From sequence record NC_054933.1: a stretch of 64,000 nt of DNA. One strand, 5' to 3'. Positions 1 to 3,204 of the stretch are shown piece by piece. The translations under genes and the position numbers were made by a program. Numbering within the stretch: the stretch's first letter is position 1; each line of letters begins with the position of its first letter. This DNA is from Escherichia phage teqhad. Below the pieces are notes generated by a model. That model was not told the DNA's origin. It saw only the letters and a list, made by a program, of their open reading frames with translations, and ran no database searches.

Positions 1-110
1 TTAAGAACTAATACACTCATTCCACGTTCTTTATAATTATGTGCAGCAGTCAAAAGAGAAGCAGATTTTCCAGCATTCATTGCTGCATAAGTAAAAATTA
101 AACTCGCCAT
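1..110 (-). CDS. tk: thymidine kinase, N-terminal part only (gene runs off the window start)
   Basis: Minus-strand translation from ATG at 110..108 reads [36 protein letters not shown] with a P-loop GKS, as I recall the T4 Tk N-terminus. Confidence 0.85.
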
Positions 111-111
111 T

Positions 112-300
112 TTAGTCCTTAGTTAAATTTTCTAAATATGTTTCTAAATCATTTTCAGCTTTATCGATAGATTTTACTAATTCGTAATATGTTTCGGCAT
201 CTCCATAATCAGAAGATATTTCAAAAGACAAATCCTTTTCTAAACTAATAATTTCACCAACTAAAAATAATATTTCGTTCTTTTGTTCGCGAGTAATCAT
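112..300 (-). CDS. small acidic hypothetical protein (62 aa), paralog of the next ORF
   Basis: ORF track; shares EQK..LF and YxEL..ExxLxxYL segments with 297..482; stop/start overlap with neighbours. Confidence 0.45.
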
Positions 301-482
301 AAGGAATTTATATAATTAATAAGTTCTTGTTCTTTATTATCGAATTCTTTAGAAAGTTCTTCGTACTCGTTTGCACTAAAAGGACCGCATTCATTACAAA
401 CTTTTTCCAATTCACTATTTTTATCCATAACTTCGTGGATAAGAGAAAAGAGTTTGTCTTTTTGTTCTTTGCTTAGGCTCAT
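297..482 (-). CDS. small acidic hypothetical protein (61 aa) with a CxxC pair
   Basis: ORF track; tandem paralog of 112..300. Confidence 0.45.
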   Translation of the reverse strand: MSLSKEQKDKLFSLIHEVMDKNSELEKVCNECGPFSANEYEELSKEFDNKEQELINYINSL

Positions 483-483
483 A

Positions 484-652
484 TATTAATTTCCAGAAGT
501 TTTAAAATAATTCGCTTTTGCTTAAATATTTCCACAGTTAAATGATCAGTATCTTTTTGACCAATTCCAATGGCAAAACCTTTATTAACAGCGAGTTCAA
601 TTAAATTATCAAGTTCACGTAACACTTCATATTGTAACTCAGAACTATTCAT
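484..652 (-). CDS. small hypothetical protein (about 56 aa), below the ORF-track size cut-off
   Basis: Read by eye on the minus strand (MNSSELQYEVLRELDNLIEL...); its ATG overlaps the stop of 649..882 in an ATGA junction. Confidence 0.3.
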
Positions 653-882
653 TTTGGTTCACCTTGTTTTACAAAGTCTGGATACGGTTGAAACCCGGAA
701 TAGAAACCTTCACCGGTATGATTTGTACATCCTTTATTGGAGCAATAGCAATAGCACCAATAATCAAAATCACATATCATTTCATCGTTACATAAAGTAA
801 AAACAACAGGCCATTTACACTTTTCACAATGGGCATTTTTAAGAATACTAGTTTGGCTCATAACCATGTAACCTTTAAGCAA
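649..882 (-). CDS. small cysteine-rich hypothetical protein (77 aa), possible zinc binder
   Basis: ORF track; nine Cys including HCEKC and CYCYC. Confidence 0.45.
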   Translation of the reverse strand: MLKGYMVMSQTSILKNAHCEKCKWPVVFTLCNDEMICDFDYWCYCYCSNKGCTNHTGEGFYSGFQPYPDFVKQGEPK

Positions 883-1070
883 TATTCTTCTACATGTTGT
901 TTACGACCTTTCTTATCAATAAAGGTATATTCAACGAATGTTCCAATGTAGTCTTTATCTACATCATGTGGACTATTAATTGGACATTTAGTACGGCAAA
1001 TGCGTTCCCATTGACGAATAATTTCCACTTTGTTTTTAGGATCAAACGGATGTGGGTAATGTACTTTCAT
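858..1070 (-). CDS. small hypothetical protein (70 aa)
   Basis: ORF track; sits in the compact overlapping minus-strand gene run. Confidence 0.45.
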   Translation of the reverse strand: MKVHYPHPFDPKNKVEIIRQWERICRTKCPINSPHDVDKDYIGTFVEYTFIDKKGRKQHVEEYCLKVTWL

Positions 1071-1521
1071 AATCCACCACTATTAAATCAATATCAGGAG
1101 TAAACATGTCGATTAATTTAGAAACCTTATCCCAATCGCCGCCAGCAATACCACAACCTATGCGTGGAATGTAAATTACCGGTTTAAACAAAAGGGTTTC
1201 TGCCTGTAGATTTAATTCTATCATGCAGTTTACTAAAGCACCATAATCAAGATTAGGACCCGGTTCGTATTGCGTATACAAATTATAGCATATACTAAAT
1301 CCTGTGGGATTATGTTTAAAAACAATAGACATATCGCCTAATTTATCACGAGAACCGTACTCAGTAGTGGTTTTATCTATTTCTAAAATTTTGGGATAGG
1401 CTCTTGCTAATTGACCAGCTACACCTGAACCCATAGTATGAAAACAATTGCACCCGTGCGCAATAATATTACCTTGAAGAAATAGGGCGACAATATCGCC
1501 CTTGATATATTTTACAATCAT
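1042..1521 (-). CDS. macro-domain protein (putative ADP-ribose / O-acetyl-ADP-ribose hydrolase)
   Basis: 159 aa; GDIVALFLQGNIIAHGCNCFHTMGSGVAGQLARAYP and IPRIGCGIAGGDWDKV resemble macro-domain ligand-binding loops. Confidence 0.6.
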   Translation of the reverse strand: MIVKYIKGDIVALFLQGNIIAHGCNCFHTMGSGVAGQLARAYPKILEIDKTTTEYGSRDKLGDMSIVFKHNPTGFSICYNLYTQYEPGPNLDYGALVNCMIELNLQAETLLFKPVIYIPRIGCGIAGGDWDKVSKLIDMFTPDIDLIVVDYESTLPTSV

Positions 1522-1859
1522 CTAGTACTCAATCCTCGATTATAAGAATCTACCAAACGGTCAACCATTGAATGACAAGCGGCTTTATCTTTCTCCTCCG
1601 CAACTGAACATTCTAAGGTATTCCACTTTTTAGCATATCGTTTTAACAATGTATCATTTTTGTATCTGCTTGATTTATCTCTTTCTCCGTCTTTATATGC
1701 ATATATTAATTTCTGCGCAAATTCAGCTTGGCATGCTTTATTTTTCCCGCAATAATCCGCTGCAGTACGGTTTACATACTCTCTAATTTCAGTATATGAT
1801 GTATCTGCTAACGCAGAAAATGAAATTAATCCTATACATAAAACCAAAATTTTAGTCAT
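1518..1859 (-). CDS. secreted or periplasmic cysteine-containing small protein
   Basis: N-terminal signal-peptide-like MTKILVLCIGLISFSALA; 4 Cys; overlaps the SLT gene start. Confidence 0.55.
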   Translation of the reverse strand: MTKILVLCIGLISFSALADTSYTEIREYVNRTAADYCGKNKACQAEFAQKLIYAYKDGERDKSSRYKNDTLLKRYAKKWNTLECSVAEEKDKAACHSMVDRLVDSYNRGLSTR

Positions 1860-2925: not shown

Positions 2926-3204
2926 TTATTCTTTAAATCTAATCAATTTATTCATAGACTTTGAAACTTCTGCACGAACCTCATGTAAGTTTTTAAGCTG
3001 TTCAAGACGCTGCTCATAGTAAGCAATTTCATCTTCTTCGAGACAGTCCTGTGAATCTTCTTTAAGATAGCGTGCATAGTCCTGGAAAGCTTTACGGACT
3101 ACTTCCTGGAAGTCATCAAGACTTTGAATTTTCTTAGGAGCGGCAGATACACGACGAGGGGCAGTATAATACTCATAACCAAACCCTGCACTTAATTGAG
3201 CCAT
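2926..3204 (-). CDS. hypothetical protein (start set at the internal [11 protein letters not shown]...)
   Basis: ORF track 2926..3246; the track start looks like a non-ATG extension. Confidence 0.4.

Follow-up and report, generated by a model that had tools for sequence, protein, structure and literature searches.

Between the thymidine kinase gene (tk) and a macro-domain gene of Escherichia phage teqhad (NC_054933.1) lies a run of tiny genes, and the question is whether they are genuine, to which part of the T-even genome they belong, and what their products may do. An earlier note on this DNA regarded them as candidate host-takeover or anti-defense effectors matching the vs.3-vs.8 region of phage T4. 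We analyzed positions 112-1070 of a stretch of 64,000 nucleotides, which we refer to as the window. For the sake of simplicity, the five open reading frames (ORFs) are called A to E:

1..110, minus strand: 5' end of tk, encoding thymidine kinase, with its ATG at 110-108
112..300, minus strand: gene A, ortholog of tk.1; 62 aa, pI 4.2, net charge -10, DUF7438
297..482, minus strand: gene B, ortholog of tk.2; 61 aa, pI 4.5, net charge -7, DUF7438
479..652, minus strand: gene C, orphan gene resembling RB32ORF110c; 57 aa, absent from T4
649..861, minus strand: gene D, predicted zinc-ribbon protein resembling RB32ORF111c/RB49ORF089c; 70 aa from the ATG at 861, absent from T4
858..1070, minus strand: gene E, ortholog of tk.3; 70 aa, pI 8.8, DUF7202
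1042..1521, minus strand: macro-domain gene of the tk.4/adfM type; 159 aa, matching the Pfam Macro and DarG models

The ORF listing and translation show that the five ORFs, all on the minus strand, cover segment 112-1070 with zero noncoding gap, encoding proteins of 62, 61, 57, 70, and 70 aa for A to E. Exact ATGA stop/start overlaps join them at the four internal junctions (297-300, 479-482, 649-652, and 858-861), and the stop codon of A lies 1 nt away from the tk start codon. The start of E sits 29 nt inside the macro-domain gene, an overlap that is not of the stop/start type. The earlier note had described a run of five tiny overlapping genes between tk and the macro-domain gene, and that layout holds. 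Its lengths for the first, second, and fifth ORFs are also correct, but the third is 57 aa rather than 56 and the fourth is 70 aa rather than 77, and its stop/start overlaps apply to the internal junctions and not to the junction of the fifth ORF with the macro-domain gene. When the 959 nt were shuffled 2,000 times, no shuffle (0/2000) placed five ORFs of ≥55 aa on a single strand, and the maximum ORF coverage was 0.56, compared to the observed 1.0, indicating that the tiling is not due to chance. Values of dN/dS between 0.04 and 0.39 across all five genes indicate purifying selection, and each of the five proteins could be assigned to a Pfam or PHROG family. A scan for sigma-70 promoters stayed at background (14 sites versus 15.7 expected), and Rfam returned no match.

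These results bear on the possibility that some of the ORFs, C especially, are chance or decaying reading frames between real genes, which we consider extremely improbable. C has almost no relatives outside the T-even phages, with just three representatives among 1.84 billion protein clusters, and it has neither a Pfam family nor a known phenotype. However, its dN/dS is 0.24 relative to a 57%-identical homolog whose synonymous sites are near saturation, it is preceded by the Shine-Dalgarno sequence AAGGTGA and coupled through ATGA at both ends, it is intact in 437 phage records, and the shuffle test argues against a chance tiling. C also matches phrog_3452 (E 2.8e-33). From these comparisons, we regard C as a lineage-restricted orphan protein. 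Two apparent relationships of C were rejected: a distant membership of C in DUF7438 was discarded (hhalign probability of 5.8%, global alignment z of ~1), and a single-sequence match to an "addiction module antidote" in the PDB (E 0.23) was gone when a profile was used as the query. A 57-aa protein of Escherichia phage UFV-AREG1, P0194, is labeled DUF7202 and matches residues 1-41 of C as well as E, which probably points to a chimera or a frameshift in its annotation.

Bases 1-1600 of the window match 693 phage records, nearly all of them Tequatrovirus, with Shigella phage ESh18 as the best match at 98%. Segment 112-1070 corresponds to the tk.1-tk.3 part of a Tequatrovirus genome, flanked by tk and tk.4. 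T4 (NC_000866) has just three genes in this interval, tk.1, tk.2, and tk.3 (NP_049720-NP_049722; UniProt P13306-P13308), whose proteins are 98.4%, 96.7%, and 92.9% identical to A, B, and E, respectively. The shared genes also agree with T4 in order, strand, and ATGA overlaps, and A, B, and E are identified as the T4 orthologs by both identity and position, with the DNA colinear except for one 379-bp indel. The match to the vs.3-vs.8 region proposed previously is thus incorrect. The RegB gene occupies 2405-2866 and vs.3, which opens the vs.3-vs.8 block, 2926-3204; the five genes are located downstream of vs and tk.4, outside the regB-to-denV interval of that block. The small Vs proteins, which the earlier note had named for comparison, show no similarity to the five proteins either: phmmer and profile searches among the 365 ORFs of the 64-kb window returned only self matches and the A-B pair, with no resemblance to a Vs protein. 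Annotations of the five genes already exist for hundreds of T4-like phages, and their products already belong to Pfam or PHROG families of unknown function, so the lack of conservation that had been named as a possible refutation is not what we find. A full-text literature search with the tk.1/2/3, DUF, and RB32ORF111c names found no paper discussing these genes.

Several features of the flanking DNA deserve separate mention. The product of the macro-domain gene shares 94-99% identity with its counterparts in ESh18, Sf22, and Dhakavirus and represents a divergent allele relative to T4. A perfect GC-rich palindrome (AGGGCGA-N5-TCGCCCT, 1484-1502) lies in the 5' end of this gene and has a terminator-like score on both strands. 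In the Moonvirus Citrobacter phage CF1, the tk.4-like macro gene is split (1853-2143 and 2152-2319 of L004), which may reflect a pseudogene or a sequencing frameshift. The adjacent vs gene (valyl-tRNA synthetase modifier; 1518-1859, minus strand) encodes 113 aa versus 115 in T4, as two residues are deleted from its signal-like N-terminal part.

When the window is aligned with T4, the DNA is nearly identical apart from a single clean 379-bp indel, which leaves T4 without C and D. The ends of this indel lie in an 8-nt direct repeat, TATGAGCC, whose two copies bound the C-D cassette:

855..862, minus strand: upstream copy of TATGAGCC, in the start-codon context of D
476..483, minus strand: downstream copy of TATGAGCC, in the start-codon context of tk.2

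Since D occupies this locus in Tequatrovirus, Dhakavirus, Moonvirus, Krischvirus, Slopekvirus, and Gelderlandvirus, a C-D deletion in the T4 lineage would be the parsimonious direction. The number of phage records differs by gene (A, 194; B, 740; C, 437; D, 764; E, 836), and the gene combinations vary in Sf22, PSD2001, CF1, Merlin, UTK0003, Phi1, and phiKp_1. Identities are also mosaic gene by gene: the C protein is 100% identical to those of T2 and RB14, the neighboring D protein is only 87% identical to that of RB14, and E is 100% identical to the Sf22 protein and 93% identical to that of T4. These mosaic identities suggest that recombination breakpoints fall at gene boundaries. A clean cassette indel at a start-codon microhomology illustrates how a gene-sized module can be swapped in T-even phages without disturbing translational coupling.

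We turn to the individual proteins. A and B both match Pfam DUF7438 (PF24219) over their full lengths and above the curated gathering score of 25 bits: A scores 55.6 bits (E 7e-15; residues 2-59 on profile positions 1-57) and B 69.2 bits (E 4e-19; residues 3-61 on positions 1-57). Both also match phrog_653, their global alignment has 17 identities and a z of 9.35 (2,000 shuffles), and phmmer links them with an E of 8.5e-5. By family membership, A and B are true paralogs, as had been proposed, but the pair is not a "clear" one in direct comparison, where BLASTP of A against B gave no match. Tk.1 is the rarer copy (194 phage records versus 740 for the Tk.2 type), and 573 of the 740 Tk.2 records carry a version that is less than 60% identical. 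Tandem DUF7438 pairs are also found in Gaprivervirus, Gelderlandvirus, and Moonvirus. The dN/dS values are 0.22-0.24 for A and 0.25-0.39 for B. Sequence periodicity, on which the helical structure of A, B, and C alike is based, suggests two amphipathic helices flanking a Gly/Pro break in A and B, and both are likely to be helical hairpins.

For D, a mechanical start at TTG 882 yields 77 aa, and a conserved ATG at 861, which is part of the ATGA overlap, yields 70 aa. The true start is almost certainly ATG 861 because the Dhakavirus homolog lacks the upstream extension and the ESh18 and RB14 proteins are annotated from the same ATG. The "MVM" residues of this extension simply arise from codons conserved at the C-terminus of E (Thr-Trp-Leu-stop). 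The earlier note counted nine cysteines in 649..882; the protein contains eight and remains Cys rich. D matches Pfam Phage_zn_bind (PF23895) full length at 93.4 bits, above the gathering score of 27 bits, with residues 1-70 on profile positions 1-69. A word-indexed search retrieved six close matches, and a cross-genus alignment query retrieved a wider set of homologs. All 121 of the retrieved homologs (121/121) carry PF23895, and among 117 homologs the cysteines and histidine are conserved as follows:

C12 and C15: conserved in 117/117 homologs
C40 and C45: conserved in 116/117 homologs
H48: conserved in 117/117 homologs
C24: conserved in 104/117 homologs
C30, C36, and C38: lineage specific

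This pattern suggests that D is a putative Cys4(+His) zinc-ribbon protein, with C12, C15, C40, and C45 as predicted Zn ligands. Structure prediction produced a confident model of D, for which the Elf1 and topoisomerase I (C-terminal type) zinc ribbons appear to be the closest known folds, although these matches are weak (Z of ≤4.1). A Trm112-like PDB match (E 0.09) was at chance level and was rejected. An in-frame 6-nt tandem duplication (TGCTAT twice, 745-756, minus strand) adds Tyr-Cys next to the predicted second zinc knuckle, and among the 764 phage records of the D family, it occurs only here and in ESh18. In the Krischvirus phages Phi1 and FL15 (2298-2492 of L005 and L009), an unrelated 64-aa Cys-rich ORF (C-x2-C ... 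C-x2-C-x-C) lies directly upstream of the D homolog.

Another possibility is that the small proteins, and D above all, work alongside thymidine kinase in nucleotide metabolism, perhaps as accessory subunits of the phage dNTP-synthesizing complex. D lies about 1 kb or less upstream of tk in Tequatrovirus, Moonvirus, Krischvirus, Slopekvirus, Gelderlandvirus, and Dhakavirus, and all five genes are cotranscribed with tk. Gene order within the Straboviridae, however, reflects general genome colinearity rather than a functional link. D homologs on three unrelated metagenomic phage contigs reside within arrays of small (early) genes with no tk within 4 kb, and T4 retains tk while lacking C and D. 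Furthermore, tk itself is nonessential (bioRxiv 10.1101/2025.11.20.689424). We therefore consider a role in nucleotide metabolism very unlikely. Among the five proteins, D is the best candidate for a nucleic acid- or polymerase-associated binder.

E matches Pfam DUF7202 (PF23832) full length at 128.4 bits, above the gathering score of 27 bits, with residues 1-70 on profile positions 1-70. The earlier note had counted two Cys-rich products in this run, presumably including the fifth ORF, but E has three cysteines, which are conserved in 64/67 (C29), 42/67 (C64), and 5/67 (C25) homologs. As only C29 is conserved, E is not a second zinc protein. The N-terminal motif HPFDPKNK of Tk.3 is almost invariant, and the confident predicted structure is that of a basic protein with a three-stranded beta-meander. 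Tk.3 is under the tightest constraint of the five (dN/dS of 0.04-0.09) and remains 81% identical in amino acids to the Phapecoctavirus copy despite saturated synonymous sites. Homologs of this DUF7202 protein extend beyond the Straboviridae to Phapecoctavirus, Justusliebigvirus, and Henunavirus, where HPFDPKNK is kept and the neighbors are unrelated hypothetical genes:

L011, 2501-2713: Tk.3 homolog outside the Straboviridae
L012, 2495-2713: Tk.3 homolog outside the Straboviridae
L013, 2462-2695: Tk.3 homolog outside the Straboviridae

We also considered that Tk.3 could bind ADP-ribose in a WWE-like manner as a partner of Tk.4/AdfM, the macro-domain protein encoded by the gene that tk.3 overlaps. 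The sole PDB profile match of the Tk.3 family is the WWE domain of PARP14 (1x4r, E 0.023), and tk.3 lies directly downstream of tk.4 in Tequatrovirus, Gaprivervirus, and the Moonvirus Merlin. That match, however, places 37 C-terminal residues of Tk.3 on the start of the WWE domain, and Tk.3 is too short to accommodate the rest. No macro-domain gene neighbors the homologs of Phapecoctavirus, Justusliebigvirus, and Henunavirus, and tk.4 is the single hit with DarTG2, with no requirement for tk.3 (bioRxiv 10.1101/2025.11.20.689424). A WWE domain in E is ruled out by fold, length, and context, as the complete fold of ~80 to 100 residues is absent, and such a partnership is highly improbable. Among the five proteins, Tk.3 is the best candidate for binding a highly conserved target.

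Are these genes expressed, and do they matter for phage growth? T4 Tk.1, Tk.2, and Tk.3 are classed as "early-RNA_middle-Protein" in omics tables, which implies that the proteins were identified (PMC9697503). The absence of translation, named in the earlier note as a possible refutation, thus does not apply to the T4 orthologs of A, B, and E, which are detected as proteins (PMC9697503). In a HIDEN-SEQ transposon study, T4 tk.1, tk.2, and tk.3 were nonessential, with insertions at 20/22, 15/16, and 23/23 sites, respectively (bioRxiv 10.1101/2025.11.20.689424). That study reports no conditional requirement for tk.1 to tk.3 with RexAB, RnlAB, CBASS, DarTG1, DarTG2, or minimal medium, while vs is important in minimal medium and tk.4 is the single DarTG2 hit (bioRxiv 10.1101/2025.11.20.689424). 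The same study gives high insertion counts for Bas37_0219-0222, with q = 1 in all three of the comparisons covered here, out of six (bioRxiv 10.1101/2025.11.20.689424). These four genes lie between tk and tk.4, and gene order and lengths, rather than sequence, suggest that they correspond to a Tk.2-like gene, C, D, and Tk.3. In our own searches, PADLOC and NCBIfam gave no match for any of the five proteins, single-protein sequence searches of the PDB yielded only chance-level matches, and no similarity to any characterized protein emerged. A BFVD fold search returned unannotated family members only, and fold matches overall were weak (Z of ≤4.1) and carried little functional information.

At least one of the five proteins could be a dedicated inhibitor of a bacterial antiphage defense, like the neighboring AdfM in a counter-defense cluster. 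The genes are small, made early, nonessential, and variably present among close relatives, and Tk.1 and Tk.2 are strongly acidic, as are several known protein or DNA mimics. Next door, tk.4 has been shown to be an anti-DarTG2 factor, and the same study identified further unannotated T-even anti-defense genes, namely, nrdC.1, which counters Septu, and bas37_0203, which counters Druantia III (bioRxiv 10.1101/2025.11.20.689424). However, tk.1 to tk.3 give no hit with any tested defense, as opposed to the single DarTG2 hit of tk.4, and the Bas37 counterparts are unaffected in the clinical-isolate comparisons covered here, including the one in which bas37_0203 falls with a log2FC of -5.8 (bioRxiv 10.1101/2025.11.20.689424). 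The five proteins have no similarity to any solved structure, and the comparison with known anti-defense families suggested in the earlier note matched none of them to a characterized inhibitor. D and Tk.3 are also slow evolving (dN/dS of 0.04-0.2), unlike the fast evolution frequent in arms-race genes. We therefore regard a dedicated anti-defense inhibitor as plausible but less likely than not. The more general suggestion of uncharacterized small proteins in a region rich in host interaction genes is reasonable given the adjacent tk.4 (AdfM) and the variable presence of the five genes, but an effector role is unproven.

Taken together, the five are genuine accessory genes of a variable T-even segment that is dispensable in the laboratory, and their T4 orthologs are expressed. 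Each product is too small for an enzyme, carries no catalytic motif, and has no enzyme fold match, from which we infer that none of the five is an enzyme. Most likely, they are small nonenzymatic accessory binders. The best overall explanation, to which we assign a probability of roughly 0.6, is an accessory tk.1-tk.3 segment encoding five small nonenzymatic binders. The segment would be part of an early/middle unit comprising regB, vs.1, vs, tk.4, the five genes, and tk. It would hold five independent, translationally coupled small genes (two for acidic DUF7438 proteins, the orphan C, the putative zinc-ribbon protein D, and the predicted beta-meander protein Tk.3). The comparisons show that these genes come and go as cassettes of gene size where start codons share microhomology, and T4 lacks C and D through one such event, the 379-bp indel. 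Each protein most likely acts in a stoichiometric manner, as a binder of some host or phage macromolecule, and such binding would confer a condition- or host-specific advantage, for example, in host takeover or counter-defense.

There is a chance, which we hold at well below even, that one or more of these proteins inhibit a host factor or a defense not yet screened, acting stoichiometrically and by a mechanism unlike those of described inhibitors, and would thus be new. D and the very strongly conserved Tk.3 are the best candidates for such an inhibitor, and D escaped all T4 genetics because T4 lacks it. As found, the segment is ordinary and adds little, and its practical value lies in prioritization. 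It contains selected, nonessential small proteins, with expressed T4 orthologs, beside a proven counter-defense gene. C and D have been invisible to T4 work since T4 apparently lost both, making D the foremost target and C a lesser one. D and Tk.3 are also found in phage groups far from this one, and finding what one of them does would at once annotate phage genes by the hundreds.

Apart from the Elf1 and topoisomerase I zinc ribbons, the closest known systems lie at the same locus. Like A, B, and E, the T4 proteins Tk.1 to Tk.3 are annotated as uncharacterized "conserved hypothetical" proteins; unlike T4, teqhad also carries C and D, which lie between tk.2 and tk.3. Counterparts of C and D are annotated at the same position in RB32, RB14, and T2, as RB32ORF110c and RB32ORF111c ("similar to RB49ORF089c"). 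The macro-domain protein of teqhad is 58% identical to T4 Tk.4/AdfM, and its gene overlaps tk.3 by 29 nt, compared to 4 nt in T4. T4 tk.4 has been shown experimentally to be the anti-DarTG2 factor AdfM (bioRxiv 10.1101/2025.11.20.689424). AdfM resembles the five genes in sharing their transcription unit, in being early, and in being nonessential except with a defense system. However, AdfM is an enzyme domain of 155 to 159 aa with clear DarG homology, whereas the five small proteins have neither an enzyme fold nor a known defense phenotype.
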